Shown piece after piece: positions 3-30,760 of a stretch of 50,282 nucleotides of DNA. The position numbers and the translations under genes were made by a program. The notes beneath the pieces are model-generated. The model saw only the letters and a program-made list of their open reading frames with translations, searched no databases and had not been told where the DNA came from. The stretch comes from Candidatus Micrarchaeota archaeon (GTDB lineage Archaea > Micrarchaeota > Micrarchaeia > Anstonellales > JAGGTN01): positions 1 to 50,282 of the forward strand of contig JAGGTN010000020.1 of the NCBI GenBank assembly GCA_021163645.1, given 5' to 3'. Position 1 is the first letter of the stretch, and every line of letters starts with the position of its first letter.

Positions 3-3000
3 ACACCAGACAATCCTAATGATAGAGTATATCTTGAAGCTGTTGTGAATGTTGCTAATGCTGTTGAAGATTGTACTAACGGTGTAGATGACGATGGAGA
101 TGATTTGGTAGACTGTGAAGACCCTGATTGTGCGGATGATCCAGAATGTCAAGTACAATGTGAATTAGAGTATATCTCCCCAACAGAAGGTCCTGAGAGT
201 GTTGCAATTAAGGGTAGAATTTCTGGTATGGAACCGAACGAATCCTATACGATTAAAGGCTTAGACAAGAACAATAATGTTTGTTTATATGCTGAAAATA
301 CAGTAAACGATTTTGGTATTGATGAATTCGGAGAACGGATTTCCAATGCTATTTGTTATTGTGATATTTGTGCAACAGGAAAACTGAGTAATTGCACTAC
401 CAATACTTTAAGGTATAAGGTCATTCAAGAAACAACCTGTAACGACACCGTAGACAACGATTGTGATGGATTGGTAGACTGTGAGGACTCAGATTGTGCG
501 GATGATCCTGCTTGTCAAACACCAGAATGCTGCGATCTTGATGCTGTAGATGGATCAGGAGATACCCCTGGATGTGGCAGTATGTATAAATCAGGAGATA
601 CATATTACATAAATAATGCAAATGATGTAATAAAATTGTGTAATAAAACTTATACTCGTGATTTATCAGGAGATAATACTTCTGTTATTGAGATAAATGG
701 AGCAAATGTTGTTCTTGATGGAGGTGGGTCCATCATAAAGCAATCTAGTTATCCTGGACTTGTTGAAATTTATGGTGTAGTAGTAAGAGAAAGTGGTGTC
801 AATGCAACCGTTAAGAACATACATGTTGAAAACTATCCGTTCGGAATATCTAGTTATGCTAATGACACAAAAATAATTAACAACAAAATAAAAAGTGCTC
901 ATTGGGGTATTAGTACTGTTGGTTCAAATGTGATTATTTCAAATAATATTGTTTCTGAAACATACTACCAAGATTACGGTGATGGAGGCTCAGCCATTTT
1001 TGTTGGAGGAGGTGCTCAGTACTGTCAAGTCACTAATAATGAAATAACTGATGGTGTTGTTGGCATAATGCTTGGTGAAGGTGGTGCATCATTTAATAAT
1101 ATATCAAATAATAACGTCACAAACAATACATATATAGGAATAGTTCTTGGACCTATTTCATCCGTTTATAAGAATACTCTAAACAGTAATTTTGTTTGTG
1201 GTAATGGATATCAGGTTGTTCCAGAGTCTCCTGGTCTAGAAGGCGATGTTTATGATAACGGGAATAATAATACATGGATTAATACTACTTGTGATGTTGA
1301 CAGTTCTAAAACAGGAATATGCATAAATCCTTGTCCATTATCAACGAATGAAACAAGTTGTGATGATGGTATAGATAACGATAATGATGGATTGATTGAT
1401 TGTGAAGACCCTGATTGTGCGGATGATCCTGCTTGCCAAGTACCAGAATGCTGCGACCTTAATACAATGGAGGGCTGTGATAATGTTACAAAAATTAGTG
1501 ATGATTACTATGTGAATGGGGAGACTCTAATATGTCAGAATGAGTATAAACTGAGTGATCTTAATGGAGACGGTGTTTTAATAATAAATTCAAGCTCAGT
1601 TGTATTAAAATGTGAAGAGGGGACTGTACTACGAGGCGATTCAAATTGTGGCATTGGATTGGTAAATGAATATGAAGATGTTATATTGATTGGCTGTGAG
1701 TTCAAAAATTATACGACGGGTGTACTCTGGACTGGTGATAATGGACGTATTGATGCTAACTCCTTAGTATTCAATTATGTTGGTTTACAGATGTCTGGGG
1801 ATAATAACCAGATTACTTATAATATAATGGATAATAATATACAATTTGGTTTATCGATTGGTGATACTTCTGGTAATCAGTTTATTGGTAACAAGATCAG
1901 AAATAATGGTCAAGAAGGGATATTTACAGTCACTTGTAGAGGAAAACTGTGTGTGTTAGATACCTTACTCAGTACCAACGAGGTATGCTATAATCCAACA
2001 GATATAGATCTTTCTGTAAGTGTTGCGAATGCATCGGGCAATAATAAATGTGATGTTTTAGTTGATAAGGGAAGTAATAATCAGGTTACCTGTTCACAGA
2101 ATTGTTCAGCACCACCTCAACCGACCTGTGTGGTACCGACCGACGGCATGCTGATAAACGAGAGTGTAGTATTGTGTCCAGGAGTTTATAATCTGCCTAA
2201 CGGAATTAAGATAAACGCTGATAATATTGTTGTTACTTGTAATGGAACTACTTTGAACGGCACGGGTTCTGGGTACGGAGTGGAAAATACGGGGCATAGT
2301 AATGTTACTATCAAGAACTGTGTTATAATAGAATACGGATATGGTGTGTACTGGGAAAATGCGAATTATGGAACCATATTTAATACAACGGTCCAAAAAT
2401 CAGGTCAAGGTATCTATTTAAGGGAATCTTCTTATAACAATGTTCGAAATAATAACGCAAGTTACAATACTCTTAATTCAGAAAGTTGTGGGATTGCAGT
2501 TCTTGGAGATAATAACAATCTAACTGATAATGTTGCTCATAACAATGTTTACTATGGTATAATAATAGAAGGAGTTGGCAACACTGTCGCGGGTAACACT
2601 TTAAGAAATAATCTGGCAGGAGTGGTAGTTCAGAGTATCGAGAGAGTATCTTCTAATAATACTCTTGTAAACAATAATATTACTGAAAATCAGTATGGAA
2701 TAGGTATTTCTGATTCCGTTGGCAACTATATTCATAGTAATTTTGTATGTGATAATAAGAATGTGGACATAACACTTTCTGCTAATACTTCTGGTAACAC
2801 TGGTGACAACACCTGTGATAAATTACAGGATGATGATTCCAATCAGGTAACATGTAGCAAAGGATGTACCCAACAGGCATGCTCTCTCTTAGTTTCACCG
2901 TCATCAGCTTACGTTGGCGAAACAGTGAAGATAAGTGGTAGCGGTTTTGCACCAAACTCTGACATAACTCTCGAGAACAGTTGCGGTGGGACGACGACGA

Positions 3001-6000
3001 TTAAATCAGACCAAAACGGTAACTTTGTCTATCCGTTCGCTACGAACTGTGGAATGCTCGGAACATGTACCGTTAAAGCTTACGATGATTTCTGCGAGGC
3101 CACGGGCACTTACACGGTCAAAACGCAAGCTGAGGTTTGCGATGACGGTGTCGACAATGATTGTAACGGAAAAATAGACTGTGCTGACCCTGCATGCATC
3201 GGGTCTGCTGCATGTACCTTCGAGGTATCCGATTGTTTCACTATAAGAAATTCGAACGGTGGGACCTGGGTACTCAAGTCGGACATAAAAGCAAACGATA
3301 AATGTATAGAACTCGGTTTAAAGCCTGGAGCGGTGGCAGTCATTCGCTGTGAAGGTCATACAATAACCGTTAATACTACCGGTAAAACGGATGCCCATGC
3401 GATAAAAGTCTTCAGTGAACAGACAAGGGATGCTGATATTAAATTAGAGAATTGTAATATTAAAATAGTTGGTAATGGTAACGGTAATGCTGTTTGGGCC
3501 TTCAACCTTAACAAGCTTGAGCTTTATAGTATCATTGCAGACGTGGCTTCTGATAACAGTTATCCAGTTTTGGCGCAGTATATTAGGAACTTGATTGCAG
3601 AAAACCTTAACATTACTCACGATGGAGACAACGCTACGGCGTTCAAGGTGCAAGAAATATCTAATTCAATAGATGTAAACAATGTCCAACTCACCAGTTC
3701 AGCTAACATCAAACAAGGTGATTTCAGAAAGAGCGTGTTTGTGAGTGACGTACATCCAGATCCTTCTCTTCCATATAAGAAGAGAAGAATATCAAATATT
3801 TATGAGCATACTAAGTTTAATAAAGCAGTAATCCTAGATTCAAGCAACTTGGTGTTGAACGATTGGAAATTCCATGATCATCAGGATGAAGGTCTGGCGA
3901 TATTGGGTAAATCATCAAATATAGAAATGACCAGATTCAATCTTTCGAATAATAATATAGGTTTATACATCGGACAAGATGTGGAAAACGTATCTATTGA
4001 TTCTTCATACATGTGTAATAACCGTGAGAAGGATGTATTATCTGCTGATATTTCTGCATTAAATGTTGGAGCAGATGTTACGTGTACAAAATCTTATCCA
4101 GAAAACATCTGTCCGAAACAATGTCCTATGGAGGATACTGATGGTGATGGAGTGCCTGATGACCAGGACAATTGTGTAAAGGTCTACAACCCAGACCAAA
4201 AAGATATTGATGGTGATGGATTGGGTGATGCCTGCGATAATTGTGTGGATGTTTACAACCCAGACCAGATAGATAACGATGGTGACGGTCTCGGGTACGC
4301 ATGCGAGCCCGGTGACCCGAACGTTTGCGATTACACGTTCGACTGTGATGGTGACGGAGTCTGTGACGGTCCACGTTCACCAGAGGCACCTGCAGTCTGT
4401 GGCAACGGAATCTGCGAGTCTGGTGAGGATTATACTACTTGTCCCTCAGATTGTCCTGCTCCATCATGCAAAGATACAGATGAAGGAATCGATTATTATA
4501 CCTCTGGTTCAGTTATGACGTCCTCGGGAAAGGAGTTCAAAGATTACTGTTTGGATAACAACAATCTAATGGAGTATGCGTGTAACCCAGATGGTAGCGA
4601 AAGCACTTATCAATACGATTGTTCAAAAGAAGGTTTAATATGCCAGGACGGTGCATGCGTTAAAGGAGCACAATGCATTGAAGGTGCGTCTTGCTCGAGC
4701 GATGATGATTGTTATGGTGGAATATGCATATTAACTTCGTCAGATGATATATGCTACGCTAAACCTATTTACTCTGATTCTGATTGTAAGATGTTCTGTA
4801 ACAATTTCTCTGGACTCAACGAATACAAATGGGATGGTGCTGAATCATGCGAATGTTACGGTTCGATAACAGAGGATGAATGCGTTGAGTCGGCTGCACA
4901 GTATGGTTATGGATACTCTTATTTCCCTGGAACGACAACAGGCACATGCGACTGCCCAATAGAGTGTTTTGAGTTGCCTTATTATGACTGTGAAAGGACT
5001 TCTGAATGCAGATGGTGTAATGGAGCATGTTTTTCATCAGATACAATATGTCAAATAAAAGTATGTAGTGGTGATAAACCAATAACGTGCTATGATCAAG
5101 CATGTTCTGATCATCAAGAAACTTACATACGTCAGACATGCATTGCCGAGGGTGAGGAGTGTAATACAGAACTGGTTGATTGTGGTACTTCTCCTATTTG
5201 CGGTGATGATGTTTGCGAAATTTATGAAGATTATAATAACTGTCCAGAGGATTGTCCACTGCCTGAATGTTCTGGTACACAGACAGATGATTGCTCCACA
5301 TTACAGGTAACGAATCCGAAATCTGAATGCCAGAATTATTATTCAAAGTCTGGGTTCCAGTGTACTGTTAACAAGGATGCAACTGGATGTATGGATAGTG
5401 AACAATGTACAGTTAAACTTTCTGAAAAAGAGATTGTTAGCTTAGAAAAAGGGAAGGTATCAAACTTGTTTAACCTATTCACATTACCTTTCATTTTCGG
5501 TTTAGGGGTGTTTATGATGAAAAGGAAAAGGAAACTGTCTTCCTCACTTTTAGCACTGGTAGTAGGGCTGATGTTAGTAACTTTTATTATAGGAACAGTG
5601 AATGCTGCGCTTCCAGAATGCTATGGTGGTGAGTCTAAGTCATGCAAAGAGATAACAGATGAAAAGACTTGTACTAATGCTTATGTTGCCTATAACAATA
5701 CATATTACCAATGCGAATGGGATCCTGTCAACTATCTTTGTCTCCTCAATACTATACCAGAGCACGAATGTGCGCCGCCTGCCCAGCAACAAGAGATATG
5801 TGATAACGGTGTTGATGATGATAGTGACGGGTTGATTGATTGCAAAGACCCGGACTGTGCAGATGATCCAGCATGCCAAGGTTGTTCACAATACACTGAT
5901 GAAACATCGTGTAACAATGACCCAAACTGTGAATGGTATCCTGGAACTCCTGAGTATGTTGGATGCGAAGGTGAAGCTAAACATTGCTCTGTGTTCTCAA

Positions 6001-9000: not shown

Positions 9001-10568
9001 AAACTAAATTCTATCATTGGAATTCTGGTACTGAAAAATGGGATTATGTAACTGGTTCAACAAATACAGGCATATTCTTAAAAGGCGGTGACACTGCATG
9101 TTTTGATATTGACAATGATGGGACAAATGAATTAATCGTCAAGAAGAAGCATAAGGATAGATTCGAAGTATATGAATGGGATGATAATCATTGGACAAAT
9201 GATGGAACATATACACATGATAACTTGATAACCGGGCATAGTGAGATCGCTGGTGGTAATGTTAGAGGTTTTGAGACTGTGTATGTTGATTCAGATGACC
9301 AGCCAGATACTGATGGTGACGGTGTATCTGATTGTGTGGATTATTGTCCAGAAACTCCTGGAACAGTTTATCATGGTTGTCCTGGTGCAATCACAACCAC
9401 TGCTAACATATATGATATCGGTTGGCATGGAGTAAAAGGGCATGAACCAAGGGATGGAGCTGAAGATGATGTGTATGAATTGGATTGTGTAAATTCAGTG
9501 CTTGGTAATTCAACAATTGCATCAGAATATGGATTTAGTACAACAACGTGGAAAGATTTGACAAGCCATATATATTCTCACAAAGACAAAGAATTAAATG
9601 CGATAAGAGAAAATTGCCCCTCATGGACATGTGAGATGGATGACACAGGTCAATGTACTGTAGGCGTTCCAAATGGGGAGTATGTTGTATTCTCACCTTT
9701 TGAAACAACGCAAATGGTACCCCATGGTGAAAGAGTATGTTATCAAAAATGTACTGGTCAACCATATAAGAAAGGAAGACATTGTTGGTGGAAGAGAGAC
9801 CACAGGGAAGGTAACCATAAGTATTGTACAAATAAATGTGGGATTAAGTGGACTGTTAAACCAGAGCAGTTTGATTTCTCAGTTTATAGGCCATCGTTAA
9901 CAGTGTCAAACTCTCTTGAGACAGCGCATTTAGACTATATTAAGACGCCATGGGGTAAGTTAGTGCCAGCAGTATTCATGGGCACAATTGTGGGTTCTGA
10001 ACTGAATGTGATTCCTTCAGAATACCTAATTGAAGTGCCAGAAGGTGAAGTGATACCTGATGATATTGCAGAGGGTGATGTAGATTATATATATCCAATG
10101 TTGTTTGAAGCTGACTCTCCGTGGGAAGTCAATGTATCAATAACACCGCCAGAAGGGTATCAAGTGGCGACGGATACTGAAGCAGAGATTAATAATTCGG
10201 TTGATAGTATCGTAATTGGGATTGTCGCAAATGTAACAAATGGAACTACTCCTGCAATGATTACAATGGCAATGGTACCATCATCAATAAACTTAATGAG
10301 AGCTGTAGTGCAGGCTAAACATCCATGGGAAACAAAATGGAAAGAACAGACTATTGATGTTAAGACAACGTTCGAACCGCAACCAAAAAAGACAGAAAAA
10401 CCATTGTTTGATGCAGGTTCAATAATAACAGTAGTGGTTGCACTTCTTGTACTTGTCATGATAGGAGTATGGTTAAGGCGTAGTACTATGAAGATTAAAC
10501 CGCATTCTAATAACTCAAACCTTGTAAAAACAAAGAAAAAGGTAAAGAATAAGAGAGGAAAAAAATAA
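3..10568 (+). CDS. Giant cysteine-rich mosaic surface protein / putative adhesin, 5'-partial (frame open to window start)
   Basis: The frame is uninterrupted from nt 3; the track start at 45 is an internal GTG with no upstream stop. The translation shows five [27 protein letters not shown] modules and three clear plus one divergent block of NNxIxxN-type parallel beta-helix (PbH1/NosD-like) repeats. It also shows TSP-type-3-like DxDxDG..NC repeats, a dozen or more CxxYxDExxC..CxW repeats, MopE-like DCDDxxxxxHPGAxExC..DxDCDG motifs and FG-GAP/VCBS-like DxDNDGxxELIV repeats. It ends in a hydrophobic helix plus a Lys-rich tail. Confidence 0.9.
   Translation, partial: [3521 protein letters not shown]
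72..152 (+). repeat. Asp/Cys-rich module copy 1 ([27 protein letters not shown])
   Basis: Read directly from the translation; shares the gattgtgcggatgatcc core at DNA level with the other copies. Confidence 0.8.
438..518 (+). repeat. Asp/Cys-rich module copy 2 ([27 protein letters not shown], followed by TPECCDL)
   Basis: Read from the translation; a 23-nt exact DNA match (gattgtgcggatgatcctgcttg) with copy 3. Confidence 0.8.
1359..1439 (+). repeat. Asp/Cys-rich module copy 3 ([27 protein letters not shown], followed by VPECCDL)
   Basis: Read from the translation; same supermodule order as copy 2 (module, ECCDL, beta-helix block). Confidence 0.8.
3138..3215 (+). repeat. Asp/Cys-rich module copy 4, divergent ([26 protein letters not shown])
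   Basis: Read from the translation; precedes the fourth beta-helix-like block. Confidence 0.7.
4134..4304 (+). repeat. Thrombospondin type-3-like calcium-binding repeats inside the giant ORF
   Basis: [57 protein letters not shown]: tandem DxDxDGxxDxxDNC..NPDQxD units. Confidence 0.7.
5457..5606 (+). other. Internal hydrophobic helix / KRKRK / signal-peptide-like helix junction within the giant ORF
   Basis: [55 protein letters not shown]. The in-frame ATG ATG at 5514 is preceded by GGGGTG (5505-5510), which resembles the GGTGA-type RBS upstream of other genes in this window. Confidence 0.6.
5641..7700 (+). repeat. Array of ~20-aa three-cysteine repeats, C-x2-[YFWL]-x-[DNST]-[EDQ]-x2-C-x4-6-C-x-W
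   Basis: Examples: [209 protein letters not shown]..QCEW, plus variants. Confidence 0.75.
5799..5879 (+). repeat. Asp/Cys-rich module copy 5 ([27 protein letters not shown])
   Basis: Read from the translation; first recognisable module after the internal TM junction. Confidence 0.8.
8740..9150 (+). repeat. FG-GAP/VCBS-like repeats (beta-propeller-type) inside the giant ORF
   Basis: [43 protein letters not shown] and [18 protein letters not shown], spaced about 60 aa apart. Confidence 0.55.
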
Positions 10569-11577: not shown

Positions 11578-11665
11578 CTCGAGTGATTATCTATTTCTTA
11601 ATTTCAAATTTATTTAAAAAATAAAAAAAAATAATTGTTGGCATATGTTATATCATTTTGAAAAT

Positions 11666-12400
11666 TTATTTGTACACTTCTGGAAGTTGGTCTGAACGGA
11701 TATGGCCGTTAGTACATTGTGAGTTAACACAGATAGGAGCGCTATCTTCCCTCCATTGACAACAGTAATGCCATCCGACACCACCAGGGCATGGAGAATC
11801 CCAGCAATGTACTGTCCAATCGCTGCTCCCAGGTTGTGTCATAACTGTTCCACTATCATATGGTAATATCAATTGGCTACTACATCCAGAGACATTCATC
11901 AATTGGCCATTTAAATGAAAGTGTGCAATCCCACAATAAACATTACGTATAGTAGAAGCTTGTGATTTATCATTGATAGTAATTATTGGATTCTGCTCTA
12001 TAATTATTGTACCATTTGCCAATGCTTTTTTTGCAGTATATTCATCCACATTGTACTTTTGCATAATCTCTTCAACAAGGAGACCATGTAATTCCACAGT
12101 TCCCATACTCGCTAGAAGATTTAGAGATTGCTGTGCGTTGTTAGTTATTTTATTATCTATATCATTTATCTTATTGTCTATACTATAAGTCCTAGCATCA
12201 AGTGTTTTTAATGTATTCCAGTTGTCCCAAACACCGTTCCATATTTGATATATCGCTGCTGCGATACTGTCTAATGTAGCTTCCACCTGTTTTGGCGCAT
12301 CCATTGCACTTATAATGCTAGTTCCAATTAATAATCCTCCTAATAGGAAGACGGCAAGTGCTCCCCTATTTATTTCAAAACTCATTTCATCTACCTCCAT
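11666..12400 (-). CDS. Secreted or membrane-anchored hypothetical protein with a Cys-rich C-terminal domain
   Basis: N-terminal hydrophobic segment GALAVFLLGGLLIGTSIISA, an Asn/Ile-rich helical middle, and many Cys in the last ~90 aa (CGIAHF..GCSS..HCWDSPCPGG..YCCQW..ICVNSQC). No family recognised. Confidence 0.55.
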   Translation of the reverse strand: MEVDEMSFEINRGALAVFLLGGLLIGTSIISAMDAPKQVEATLDSIAAAIYQIWNGVWDNWNTLKTLDARTYSIDNKINDIDNKITNNAQQSLNLLASMGTVELHGLLVEEIMQKYNVDEYTAKKALANGTIIIEQNPIITINDKSQASTIRNVYCGIAHFHLNGQLMNVSGCSSQLILPYDSGTVMTQPGSSDWTVHCWDSPCPGGVGWHYCCQWREDSAPICVNSQCTNGHIRSDQLPEVYK

Positions 12401-13750: not shown

Positions 13751-14455
13751 TTAATCTCTTACAATTGTTCCATTATGTTTCTTTCCCATAATGGCTTTCT
13801 CTACATCAGTATAATTCTGTCCTTTGACAAAATGTAGTTCTATGTTGTGTATTAAAGCTAGTTTCGTTCCTAACATATCAAATATGATATGTTCGCCTGC
13901 CATGCCTGTTGCAGATCTGAATACAATGTTTAGCAATTCGCGATGATTCATTTTATTAATCTTCTTAGCTTTTGGATTTTTATTAGGGTCAGAATCATAA
14001 ACTCCATTCACGTTGCTTACATTAACCAATCGTTTTGCATTGCTTGCGATGGATAGTATGACTGAATCAGCATCTGATGTCATGCCGGGTGATACACCTC
14101 CAGTGACAACAACGTTGTATATATTCAACACATCTCGGAGTTTAACCGTGAAATCACAACTACTTAAATATTCTGGGTATACGTTGACTCCTTTTGCGTT
14201 TAGGATTCGTATGACATAAGCAGCATTTAATCGCGTTGCGAGTATTCCTACTTCATCACATTCTATCTCTGAGATATTGAATTTCCTCATCACGTTTGGA
14301 TAAGCTCGTGCAATGTAACCTCCTCCTGTAACGATAACGATTTTTTCTTTTTTACTGATTTTTTTAATTATATCCGAGAACCTAGATATGAACCTAGTAT
14401 CTGGTTCTCCTGTTCCGTTGATAACACTCCCTCCTAATGATAATACGACTGTCAT
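13751..14455 (-). CDS. pyrH: Uridylate (UMP) kinase, archaeal type
   Basis: Amino-acid-kinase fold motifs VVLSLGGSVI, IVIVTGGG, VVVTGGVSPGMTSDADS, VNGVYDSDPNKNP. The ATG at 14455 follows AAGGTGAT; the track's GTG at 14464 is inside the RBS. Confidence 0.8.
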   Translation of the reverse strand: MTVVLSLGGSVINGTGEPDTRFISRFSDIIKKISKKEKIVIVTGGGYIARAYPNVMRKFNISEIECDEVGILATRLNAAYVIRILNAKGVNVYPEYLSSCDFTVKLRDVLNIYNVVVTGGVSPGMTSDADSVILSIASNAKRLVNVSNVNGVYDSDPNKNPKAKKINKMNHRELLNIVFRSATGMAGEHIIFDMLGTKLALIHNIELHFVKGQNYTDVEKAIMGKKHNGTIVRD

Positions 14456-26521: not shown

Positions 26522-26627
26522 CGCCTCCACGGGGATTTTCAGTCATCCTAACCTAAGAAAATTAGCCTTTGAACCCCGATCCCAGCCTCCGCAAGGCAGT
26601 ATTCTGTCCAGGTTAAACTATGGAGGC
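26522..26627 (-). tRNA. tRNA-Arg (anticodon GCG) with a ~32-nt intron in the T-loop
   Basis: Hand fold: acceptor GCCTCCA/TGGAGGC; D arm GTTT-AACCTGGACA-GAAT; anticodon arm CTGCC-TTGCGGA-GGCTG (one U-U mismatch). The T stem CGGGG/CCCCG is separated by 39 nt (TTCAAA + 32 nt + T). Intron about 26536-26567. CCA not encoded. Confidence 0.7.
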
Positions 26628-26876: not shown

Positions 26877-27620
26877 ATGCCAAGAAGAAAAGTAACTGAA
26901 ATTAAATATGATATAAATGATAGTGCTGTTGAAAGGTTGAAGAATTATAATATTAATTATGTTAAGAGGAAACGTTCGGAGGAAAAGGCAAAAATCTCCA
27001 ATAGAGTTTATAGGCTTATTAGTATGGGTCAGAGGTTATATGAACAAGGTAAGAGGGAGAAAGATAATTTTAATAAGATTGGATTATATTCATTGGAAGA
27101 AGCATATGAGATTGTTAAGAAAAATAGAATACCTATTTCGTTCCGTGCATTTGGCGGGAGGGTTGAAAGGAAAAGTATTCCATCAGTTAAGATTGGTAGA
27201 AAACGTTTTATCCCATCACTTCTTTTAGAAGATTGGATTTCATTGTATGATGAATTTTATACAGTAAGGGATGCATTTAAGAAACTTAAAAAGTATGAGA
27301 GAGGCCTTAATTTGCGTGCATTTATTGGCAGGGTAGAAAAGAACAGTATTCCATCAATTAAGATCGGAACGCAACGATGGATCCCAAAGACTTATATTGA
27401 CGAATATGCAAAAGTGGTTAAGAATTATCATACTGTTTCGTCCGCTATGAATGAACTTAGGAAAAATGGGATTAAGATTCGTAGGAATGCTTTTGAAAGG
27501 AGAATAGATAGGGGTCGCATTCCGCATGTGAAAATTGGCGGTAAGAGATTTATCCCAAAAGATGTTGTCAAGCAAGTAATAAAAGGCGAGCTTGATAGGA
27601 TGAAAAATAGAAATAAATAA
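26877..27620 (+). CDS. DNA-binding protein with three tandem excisionase/MerR-type HTH (HTH_17-like) repeats
   Basis: Three 57-aa units (nt 27087-27599): ..RAFGGRVERKSIPSVKIGRKRFIPS.., ..RAFIGRVEKNSIPSIKIGTQRWIPK.., ..NAFERRIDRGRIPHVKIGGKRFIPK.., preceded by a basic N-terminal region. Confidence 0.6.
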   Translation: MPRRKVTEIKYDINDSAVERLKNYNINYVKRKRSEEKAKISNRVYRLISMGQRLYEQGKREKDNFNKIGLYSLEEAYEIVKKNRIPISFRAFGGRVERKSIPSVKIGRKRFIPSLLLEDWISLYDEFYTVRDAFKKLKKYERGLNLRAFIGRVEKNSIPSIKIGTQRWIPKTYIDEYAKVVKNYHTVSSAMNELRKNGIKIRRNAFERRIDRGRIPHVKIGGKRFIPKDVVKQVIKGELDRMKNRNK

Positions 27621-27630
27621 TATGTTTATA

Positions 27631-27773
27631 AGCCTCGGGAGGGATAATCATACTTACTGGAATGCAATCAACCAGATGGTATCTTGAACCCCCGACCTGC
27701 TGCTTTATTTCTCAGAACTGTTTGTTCAGTTGAGAGTTACAAGGCAGCCGCTCTACCACTGAGCTACCGAGGC
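27631..27773 (-). tRNA. tRNA-Thr (anticodon UGU) with two introns (canonical 37/38 and T-loop)
   Basis: Hand fold: acceptor GCCTCGG/CCGAGGC; D arm GCTC-AGTGGTA-GAGC; anticodon stem GCTGC/GCAGC; loop CTTGTA[33-nt intron, 27705-27737]A. T stem GGGGG/CCCTC, with loop TTCAA[38-nt intron, 27646-27683]AT. Confidence 0.75.
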
Positions 27774-27964
27774 ATTTGAGCGAAGCGAAAATGCTGAGGT
27801 TGCAAACGAATCATAGTTGTTTGATCAACCAGTTTGATTTATATTAAATACATGAAATTTTATTAAAGACCTTTTTTAAATATATTGGTTAATATATTAT
27901 CAGTTCTATTTGTATATATGTTTATATAACTAACGATAATTAAATATTAATAAGAGGTGTTGAT

Positions 27965-28171: not shown

Positions 28172-28310
28172 GCGGGGGTGCCGGAGTCTGGTCAAACGGG
28201 CTGGACTTAAGACATTTTCTCTATAAAGAAAATATGAGAGAAAACTTTATATATTGAGAAAAGAAATCCAGTGACTTAGGTCTGCTAGGGTTCAAATCCC
28301 TACCCCCGCA
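28172..28310 (+). tRNA. tRNA-Leu (anticodon UAA) with a 54-nt intron at 37/38
   Basis: Acceptor GCGGGGG/CCCCCGC; class II variable arm TGACTTAGGTCTGC; anticodon stem CTGGA/TCCAG; loop CTTAAG[intron 28212-28265]A; T arm TAGGG-TTCAAAT-CCCTA. Confidence 0.85.
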
Positions 28311-28377
28311 CTTTTTCTTTCGGTGTCCTCAGTTCCTTCGGACATCCAAAGAAAACCTGCACTAAAAGAAAGGAAAA
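28311..28377 (+). repeat. Conserved 67-nt tRNA-Leu trailer element, copy 1 (oligo-T, hairpin, AAAACCTGCACTAAAAGAAAGG box)
   Basis: 6 differences in 67 nt against 30694-30760 by hand alignment. Hairpin GGTGTCC..GGACATC at 28322-28346. A partial extra box copy lies at 28432-28465, and an inverted 16-nt exact copy within 28728-28747. Confidence 0.7.
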
Positions 28378-30525: not shown

Positions 30526-30693
30526 GCGGGGGTGCCGGAGTGGTCAAACGGGCTGGACTCAAGATGCACTTTCTTTCTCTTCCAAAAGAAAAATTCTTAC
30601 TAAGAAAAAAGGTTTTTCAATGGGATAAAGAAAGTAAGTAGATAAGTCATCCTGTGGCTTAGGCCTACTAGGGTTCGAATCCCTACCCCCGCA
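30526..30693 (+). tRNA. tRNA-Leu (anticodon CAA) with an 85-nt intron at 37/38
   Basis: Same acceptor, D and T arms as the UAA isoacceptor. Loop CTCAAG[intron 30564-30648]A; the 3' anticodon stem TCCTG gives one U-U mismatch. The variable arm TGGCTTAGGCCTAC has compensatory changes relative to copy 1. Confidence 0.8.
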
Positions 30694-30760
30694 CTTTTTC
30701 TTTCGGTGTCCTCAGTTTCTTCGGACACCCAAATAAAACCTATACTAAAGGAAAGGAAAA
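30694..30760 (+). repeat. Conserved 67-nt tRNA-Leu trailer element, copy 2
   Basis: Aligns with 28311-28377. The hairpin GGTGTCC..GGACACC (30705-30729) has G-C where copy 1 has G-U. Confidence 0.7.

Follow-up and report, generated by a model that had tools for sequence, protein, structure and literature searches.

Can a tRNA-Thr(UGU) gene that is interrupted both in its anticodon loop and in its T-loop be a working gene, and by which route would its transcript mature? The question is raised by a 143-nucleotide (nt) locus on the minus strand of contig JAGGTN010000020.1 of a Candidatus Micrarchaeota archaeon (assembly GCA_021163645.1). The window, meaning the whole stretch of DNA that was analysed, comprises positions 1 to 50,282 of this contig. 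The assembly has a size of 895 kb and a GC content of 34.4%, and it is 88.6% complete. Below, C3-C57 are contigs of this source genome (G000), and G001-G040 are relatives of the same order. Our answer is that the locus is the single functional tRNA-Thr(UGU) gene of a small DPANN genome, decoding ACA, with two introns that are spliced by proteins and a maturation that follows the route proposed below. We put the probability of this reading at about 0.9.

The gene covers 27631-27773 (minus strand) and consists of 72 nt of exon and two introns of 33 and 38 nt. This anatomy can be read directly from the DNA: from 27773 to 27631, the minus strand gives GCCTCGGTAGCTCAGTGGTAGAGCGGCTGCCTTGTA, 33 nt, AGCAGCAGGTCGGGGGTTCAA(G), 38 nt and (A)TCCCTCCCGAGGCT. 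The exons are 36, 22 and 14 nt long. Exon 1 (27738-27773, minus strand) holds tRNA positions 1-37, with the 5' strand of the acceptor stem, the D arm, the 5' strand of the anticodon stem and the loop nucleotides C32 U33 U34 G35 U36 A37. Intron 1 (27705-27737, minus strand; 33 nt, ACUCUCAACUGAACAAACAGUUCUGAGAAAUAA) lies at the canonical position 37/38. Exon 2 (27683-27704, minus strand) holds positions 38-59, namely A38, the 3' strand of the anticodon stem, the variable loop AGGUC, the 5' strand of the T stem (GGGGG) and the T-loop nucleotides U54 U55 C56 A57 A58 G59. The boundary of exon 2 was set by the geometry of the splice motif described below, which places intron 2 (27645-27682, minus strand; 38 nt, AUACCAUCUGGUUGAUUGCAUUCCAGUAAGUAUGAUUA) in the T-loop, probably at 59/60. 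Exon 3 (27631-27644, minus strand) holds positions 60-73, with U60, the 3' strand of the T stem (CCCUC), the 3' strand of the acceptor stem (CCGAGGC) and a U as discriminator.

After removal of both inserts, the 72-nt product was called tRNA-Thr(tgt) by ARAGORN with a score of 122.8. Of 3000 shuffled versions of this product, none was called a tRNA. The stems of the spliced form comprised 7 bp (acceptor), 4 bp (D), 5 bp (anticodon) and 5 bp (T, with one G-U pair), and the two interrupted loops closed to 7 nt each, CUUGUAA and UUCAAGU (or UUCAAAU). The features of tRNA-Thr identity were all present when read from the sequence: the anticodon UGU in a 7-nt loop, U33, a purine at 37, G1-C72, C2-G71 and U73. 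G1-C72, C2-G71 and U73 are typical of archaeal tRNA-Thr. The CCA end is not encoded. These results bear out the original prediction, made from the letters alone, of a 143-nt tRNA-Thr(UGU) gene with 72 nt of exon, introns of 33 and 38 nt, and stems that pair perfectly or with a single G-U. Its placement of the first intron at 37/38 (27705-27737) was also correct.

The unspliced locus was called neither by ARAGORN (default and -i) nor by Rfam at the gathering score; there was a partial RF00005 match only (22.5 bits, 27687-27773). This silence is a failure of detection and not evidence against the gene. In the unconstrained minimum free energy (MFE) fold of the 143-nt precursor (-52.7 kcal/mol), the cloverleaf was present, and each insert extended the anticodon arm or the T arm. 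Two other kinds of element were considered for the locus. A split or permuted tRNA gene was ruled out, as the three exons are colinear inside 143 nt. An intron-encoded C/D box small RNA or a self-splicing group I/II intron was rejected as well: neither intron contains a box C (RUGAUGA), their lengths are only 33 and 38 nt, and no Rfam family was matched at the gathering score.

Where exactly the inserts begin and end depends on the splice motif. In the archaeal bulge-helix-bulge (BHB) motif at 37/38, nt 32-35 form a central helix of 4 bp, and the 3-nt bulges that flank it hold the splice sites (PMC4090602). By this rule, the cut on either strand comes after the second bulge nucleotide. At intron 2, the geometry is that of an hBHBh' motif with the T stem as outer helix. 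The central helix consists of U54.U, U55-A, C56-G and A57-U (3/4 paired, in the 3-4-3 register), flanked by the bulges A58 G59|A and U A|U60. All positions of the inner helix UAC/GUA are paired (3/3), and CUGG/CCAG follows. Only 1.5% of shuffled introns reached this number of pairs (3/4 central and 3/3 inner). Fitted to the T arm in this way, the rule puts intron 2 at 59/60, and nucleotide 59 becomes a G instead of an A.

The frames 58/59 and 59/60 both remove 38 nt and differ in the T-loop of the product, which is UUCAAAU for 58/59 and UUCAAGU for 59/60. As ARAGORN gave both products the same score, the choice of frame rests on geometry. By that standard and by analogy with published introns, intron 2 probably sits at 59/60 (27645-27682). 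The original prediction had placed it at 27646-27683, which corresponds to 58/59; the length of 38 nt and the location in the T-loop stood, and the frame is better moved by one position. The two frames differ at nucleotide 59 (A or G), which makes the gene a convenient natural test case.

For intron 1, the frames 36/37, 37/38 and 38/39 yield an identical product, and the canonical frame 37/38 corresponds to 27705-27737. The two 3-nt bulges (UA|A and AA|A) are spaced correctly, and the inner helix CUC/GAG is paired at 3/3 positions. The central helix of this junction is weaker and is taken up below, where the reading is weighed.

Whether such junctions are a peculiarity of one gene or a rule of the genome was addressed by a census of tRNA introns, which had been proposed together with the original prediction. 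Candidate T stems split by an insert after NTCRA were collected and spliced in silico, and ARAGORN was run again on the products. A second arm scanned for the 3-4-3 BHB geometry, also with in-silico splicing, and the remaining loci were read by eye. Seeding from GC-rich islands (657 islands) or from a loose D-arm pattern (825 seeds) was too noisy on its own. This heuristic census probably does not cover every gene: it turned up no Trp, Tyr or Thr-GGU tRNA, and some further isoacceptors were also missing.

ARAGORN with intron search reported 12 tRNAs in the assembly, 11 of them with introns. The census yielded 37 recognisable tRNA genes, 36 of which are interrupted. The sole intact one is the initiator tRNA-Met (C50:~11618-11692, minus strand). 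An intron at 59/60 of the T-loop was found in 24 genes, namely tRNA-Thr(UGU), tRNA-Arg(GCG) at 26627-26522 and 22 further genes. The claim that T-loop introns recur in this genome, which was originally based on the Thr and Arg genes of the window, thus holds far beyond this pair.

The 24 T-loop junctions form an ungapped alignment, and 22 of them were found without selection on the central or the inner helix. The junction of Val-UAC came from the BHB scan, which filters on both helices, and that of Glu-CUC was read by eye. All 24 show YGAW-AA|U as the 3' junction before the T stem. The central helix at 59/60 is made of the universal T-loop bases U54-A57, which pair with the YGAW box near the 3' end of the intron in the 24 genes. 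Over these junctions, the central helix was paired at 91.7% and the inner helix at 70.8%, with changes on both sides at all three inner pairs. A C opposite position 57 occurred solely where 57 is a G. In register 0, 89.9% of the cells were paired, compared to 61.5% and 54.2% after a slide by one column. The 19 anticodon-loop junctions behaved similarly (83.8% in register 0 versus 35.5% and 46.4% when slid). It follows that the BHB rule holds across the precursor tRNAs of this genome at both sites, with the Thr gene as a conforming member.

The same rule corrected several automatic calls. ARAGORN with -i misplaced introns and miscalled anticodons at C16:1701-1852, C7:16185-16357, C44:17825-17935, C56:9412-9596 and C51:1896-2021: Ser-UGA was reported as Thr-UGU, Asn-GUU as Tyr, Ala-CGC as Leu, Leu-GAG as Phe and Thr-CGU as Ser. 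When spliced in the BHB register, the miscalled genes reached higher scores (120-123) and the right identity.

The enzymes for removing and joining are all encoded. A 422-amino-acid EndA open reading frame (ORF) on C50 carries the Pfam domains tRNA_int_endo and tRNA_int_endo_N, and its residues 32-422 align to residues 13-387 of PDB 4FZ2 (E=5.9e-119). This PDB entry represents the ARMAN-2 (Candidatus Micrarchaeum acidiphilum) epsilon2 endonuclease, whose catalytic triad is Y236, H251 and K282 and whose specificity loop contains the lysine K161 (PMC6379350). In the alignment, the triad and K161 are all identical (FRVYF, WIHSKH, SVRKTF and GTYK). Enzymes of the epsilon2 type are single polypeptides of ~390 amino acids composed of alphaN-alpha-betaC units. 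By its sequence, EndA is such a splicing endonuclease of three units, and homodimeric cutting of strict and relaxed BHB motifs is predicted for it. RtcB is present and split over two contig ends (C49:5-1168 and C40:9-155); as far as can be seen, this is a break in the assembly and not a broken gene. Moreover, the genome encodes RNase P RNA (123 bits) and an archaeal CCA-adding enzyme.

The first reading of the locus had called the processing machinery unusual for an FtsZ-bearing archaeon. This is partly right: the enzyme is of the three-unit epsilon2 type and not of the euryarchaeal type, and FtsZ is encoded in three copies in the genome (one of them in the window). However, this enzyme is what would be expected for the lineage, and FtsZ is uninformative in this respect. 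Of the 40 relatives of the order that were searched, 35 have the epsilon2 enzyme in full length, and 39 have it at least partially.

With these enzymes, maturation could proceed as follows. A precursor of at least 143 nt would be transcribed with a leader and a U-rich trailer, and its 5' end would be trimmed by RNase P. The homodimeric three-unit epsilon2 EndA would then recognise the BHB motif at each intron and cut after the second nucleotide of each 3-nt bulge. The introns of 33 nt (37/38) and 38 nt (59/60) would be released, the three exons (36 + 22 + 14 nt) would be ligated by RtcB, and the 3' end would be completed by the CCA-adding enzyme. We infer transcription, cleavage at exactly these phosphates and ligation.

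The relatives provide a further view of the same gene. A search with exon 1 found tRNA-Thr genes in 39 of the 40 genomes of the order, at 86-97% identity. The tRNA-Thr(UGU) gene is intron-less in G005, G014, G021, G029, G030, G034, G037 and G038. It has the anticodon-loop intron only in G001 and G010, the T-loop intron only in G011, G019 and G028, and both introns in G009. The introns of the relatives range from 15 to ~140 nt and are unrelated in sequence, whereas the exons are conserved. This contrast marks the inserts as real introns and the gene as functional. The orthologue of G001 shows a perfect CUUG/CAAG central helix at the site that corresponds to intron 1. The junction TGAAAA|U is common to G011 and G028. 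The T-loop introns of G009 and G019 do not fit the 59/60 register (1/4 central pairs); their 3' junction is AGAACAAYU, which implies a slightly different geometry or position in these two genomes, as far as the sequence can indicate.

We also counted covariance-model tRNA matches at E<=1e-8, which are a proxy for interruption and not a census. There were 5 in the source genome, 3 in G009 and G019, and 6 to 9 in G003, G018 and G028. The remaining relatives had 11 to 61 matches, with at least 25 in two thirds and about 30-44 in most of them. As these counts are uneven while the enzyme is nearly universal, heavy interruption is patchy across the order.

No second tRNA-Thr(UGU), intron-less or otherwise, was found in the 895-kb assembly; an intron-less copy was the finding that, according to the original prediction, would have spoken for a decaying duplicate. 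The 'tRNA-Thr(tgt)' that ARAGORN reported on C16 was considered as a second copy and rejected, because its long variable arm identifies it as tRNA-Ser(UGA) with a misplaced intron call. A tRNA-Thr(CGU) with one intron of 52 nt lies on C51, and tRNA-Thr(GGU) was not found in the heuristic census. ACA is the commonest Thr codon in long open frames, with 46% of the Thr codons and 22.6 per 1000. The gene is thus apparently essential.

Several points weigh against our reading or parts of it. Intron 1, read in the canonical register, has a central helix with 2/4 pairs only: U33-A and U34-A lie between the mismatches C.U and G.A. This register is predicted at -9.2 kcal/mol, compared to -17.3 kcal/mol for a shifted pairing without the bulges, and 6% of shuffled introns reached its number of pairs. 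Because only 2/4 of this helix is paired and the MFE favours another register, the motif is named a relaxed BHB. The pattern is compatible with such a motif, and the register is supported genome-wide at the anticodon loop. The BHB folding that had been suggested as a check at both junctions was seen in good form at intron 2 (3/4 central, 3/3 inner); at intron 1 (2/4 central), the junction may be a relaxed form. Upstream, there is no clear TATA box at the usual -25 to -30; the nearest candidate, the TATA-like tttaatataaa, lies ~65-75 nt before +1, and the promoter assignment is weak. With an assembly that is 88.6% complete, an extra unassembled copy is conceivable. Finally, the preference for 59/60 over 58/59 draws on geometry and on the analogy with the published introns of ARMAN-2. 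If the T-loop intron were cut at 58/59 (27646-27683), gene and mechanism would be the same as favoured here, and the mature T-loop would be UUCAAAU. This is the most frequent T-loop in the genome and is present in several orthologues, and the base preceding U60 is an A in 21 of the 24 T-loop introns, which can be read as a conserved exonic A59. ARAGORN has no preference for either product. However, a central helix of 54-57 with 3-nt bulges, cut after the second bulge nucleotide, leads to 59/60 on both strands. A-rich 3' bulges also occur at 37/38 introns, so the conserved A need not be exonic. Orthologues with the T-loops UUCAAGU (G021) and AUCAAGU (G014) exist, and ARMAN-2 introns of like architecture were assigned to 59/60 in the literature (PMC3239211). 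Hence, we regard the cut at 58/59 as unlikely.

A disabled gene would be a more radical explanation: a former tRNA-Thr, hit by two insertions, would be decaying, and ACA would be decoded by another copy or from outside. The lack of any call by standard tools, the incomplete assembly (88.6%) and the weak junction of intron 1 would agree with this. Yet none of the four stems is damaged (there is one G-U pair), exon 1 is up to 97% identical to the tRNA-Thr genes of relatives, and both inserts lie exactly at the sites predicted by the BHB rule. No other tRNA-Thr(UGU) was found while ACA is the main Thr codon. Moreover, 36 of the 37 recognised tRNA genes are interrupted likewise; in this genome, an insert thus cannot be a sign of inactivation. 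That the gene is a decaying duplicate is very improbable. It is also conceivable that the introns have a role of their own beyond being removed, as stable or circular RNAs, as guide RNAs, or as a barrier that breaks the attachment site of an integrase in the T-arm and acceptor. Position 59/60 falls within the tRNA segment that integrases commonly target, and an intron there interrupts it. Introns at 59/60 are nearly universal in the genome, some are common to different tRNAs, and an excisionase-like helix-turn-helix gene adjoins the locus. The two Thr introns themselves offer little to such a role, being unique in the genome and unrelated to the introns of the orthologues; with only 33 and 38 nt, they contain no box C and match no Rfam family. 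An independent role is thus quite improbable for them, and we retain the functional tRNA-Thr(UGU) with two spliced introns. BLAST found no related copy of intron 1 or intron 2 elsewhere in the genome, so there is no basis for claiming that the introns of this gene transposed.

The combination of such a gene with its enzyme is not new. In ARMAN-2, 56% of the tRNA genes are interrupted (Fujishima 2011, PMC3239211). Its tRNA-Cys has a 59/60 intron that was cut in vitro by the epsilon2 enzyme, and its tRNA-Pro(GGG) has introns at 53/54 and 59/60 (PMC3239211). According to Kaneta et al. 2018 (PMC5829648), only Micrarchaeum and Mancarchaeum are known to have the epsilon2 type. Our case resembles ARMAN-2 (PMC3239211) in the phylum-level group, the epsilon2 endonuclease, the 59/60 position in the T-loop, the canonical 37/38 introns alongside, and the mixture of strict and relaxed BHB motifs. 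It differs in the tRNA concerned (Thr-UGU), in the family-level lineage and in an apparently much higher load (36/37 versus 56%). Two-intron and 59/60 tRNA genes together with the enzyme have been known in Micrarchaeota since 2011. Given this precedent, tRNA-Thr(UGU) is a further example that extends a known class and does not found a new one. It is a clean additional example of how T-loop introns go together with the epsilon2 endonuclease, an association that was already known.

The multi-intron tRNA genes of Thermoproteales and other TACK (Thaumarchaeota, Aigarchaeota, Crenarchaeota and Korarchaeota) archaea are similar in that a gene can hold as many as three BHB introns, that non-canonical positions occur, the T-loop among them, that a high fraction of the genes is interrupted and that different tRNAs can have related introns (Sugahara 2007/2008; Fujishima 2010; via PMC4090602). 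Their endonuclease is a heterotetramer of the (alpha-beta)2 type that carries the crenarchaeal loop, and their intron positions are more scattered, whereas here the enzyme is epsilon2 and 59/60 dominates. Compared to the canonical archaeal 37/38 intron with a strict hBHBh' motif, as outlined in that source, intron 1 has the same position, the same 3-4-3 spacing and an inner helix from the second intron base (Marck and Grosjean 2003; Xue et al. 2006; via PMC4090602). In contrast to that outline, its central helix has two A-U pairs only. Split and permuted tRNA genes (Nanoarchaeum equitans, Caldivirga, Thermofilum) share the BHB-like junctions and the need for an endonuclease of broad specificity. 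Unlike these, the exons of our gene are colinear and contiguous in 143 nt, and no trans-joining or permutation is needed.

The intron load of this genome (36/37) appears to be above the 56% of ARMAN-2 and also above the figure of 'up to 87%' given for archaea in 2011 (PMC3239211). Since the universal T-loop UUCR supplies the central helix of the splice motif, any tRNA is a ready target. Tentatively, the gene could be one case of a process in which BHB introns have invaded the tRNA genes of some Micrarchaeota lineages almost to saturation, with 59/60 as a hot spot; we consider this broader scenario possible and rather doubtful. If the load exceeds everything documented and if the gains can be ordered on a tree, the group would be a natural system for the gain of archaeal tRNA introns. 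Under the same conditions, it could also serve for asking whether introns shield tRNA genes from integrating elements. The near-total interruption, the hot spot at 59/60 and the variable load under one enzyme, as the heuristic census shows them, are of interest for tRNA intron evolution. There is a practical side for annotation as well: standard finders miss the gene, and the organism would seem unable to read ACA and many other codons.

The flanks of the gene show some features of their own. The 5' leader (27774-27814, minus strand) carries the motif ..CGTTTGCAACC..CATTnnnCGCTnCGCTCnAAT immediately before +1, which is common to a few other tRNA genes of the genome. It consists of a short hairpin around GTTGCAAC, followed by CATTnnnCGCTnnCGCTCnAAT, which abuts +1 of the tRNA. 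BLAST and a regular expression also found the motif (motif-level matches) upstream of tRNA-Met (C21:3687-3738), Glu-UUC (C41), Glu-CUC (C11) and Asn (C7). It was not found upstream of tRNA-Thr(UGU) in the relatives. The 3' trailer (27600-27630, minus strand) is T-rich (UAUAAACAUAUUAUUUAUUUCUAUUUUUC) and likely represents an oligo-T termination region. A convergent ORF of 247 amino acids (26877-27620, plus strand) stops in this region, 10 nt from the 3' end of tRNA-Thr. It sits between the two tRNA genes of the window that have T-loop introns, and BLAST against the own genome found no att-like repeat (duplicated tRNA 3' end) near it. The other of these two genes, tRNA-Arg(GCG) (26522-26627, minus strand), has one intron of 32 nt at 59/60, and its junction is built like that of intron 2, with a TTCA:TGAA central helix and an AA|U bulge. 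Further tRNA loci of the census lie at 28172-28311 and 30526-30694 in the window.

Some genes of the census are unusual in other ways. A probable case with three introns is tRNA-Glu(CUC) (C11:~13790-14009, minus strand; 37/38, 53/54 and 59/60). A probable tRNA-Phe (C16:36567-~36780, plus strand) also has three introns, with a middle exon of 7 nt (GCTGAAG). In tRNA-Pro(GGG) (C53:~5249-5381, minus strand), there is a 53/54 intron only. A D-loop intron of 51 nt was found in tRNA-Ala(GGC) (C44:~9036-9158, minus strand), and tRNA-Ala(UGC) (C3:13188-13650, plus strand) contains an A-rich, internally repetitive intron of 389 nt.

Related 59/60 introns were seen in three pairs of tRNA genes: Arg-CCU (C23:14792, plus strand) and Lys-CUU (C23:23035, plus strand), with 83% identity over ~230 nt; Ile-GAU (C41:~1646-1788, minus strand) and Val-GAC (C47:~5094-5224, minus strand), with 83% identity over 54 nt; and His (C19:~3352, plus strand) and Lys-UUU (C44:17686, minus strand), with 86% identity over 42 nt. 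As the tRNA bodies of these pairs are also similar, duplication with a change of anticodon is as likely as transposition of the intron.

In four relatives, the loci L005 (G038), L011 (G033), L013 (G029) and L014 (G008) contain a second copy of the T-loop, the 3' strand of the T stem and the 3' strand of the acceptor stem ~90-110 nt downstream of tRNA-Thr. A G-rich hairpin precedes the copy at these loci, and the copy of L013 is not identical. This duplicated 3' end could be left over from the attachment site of an element that had integrated, or it could be a split tRNA's 3' half.

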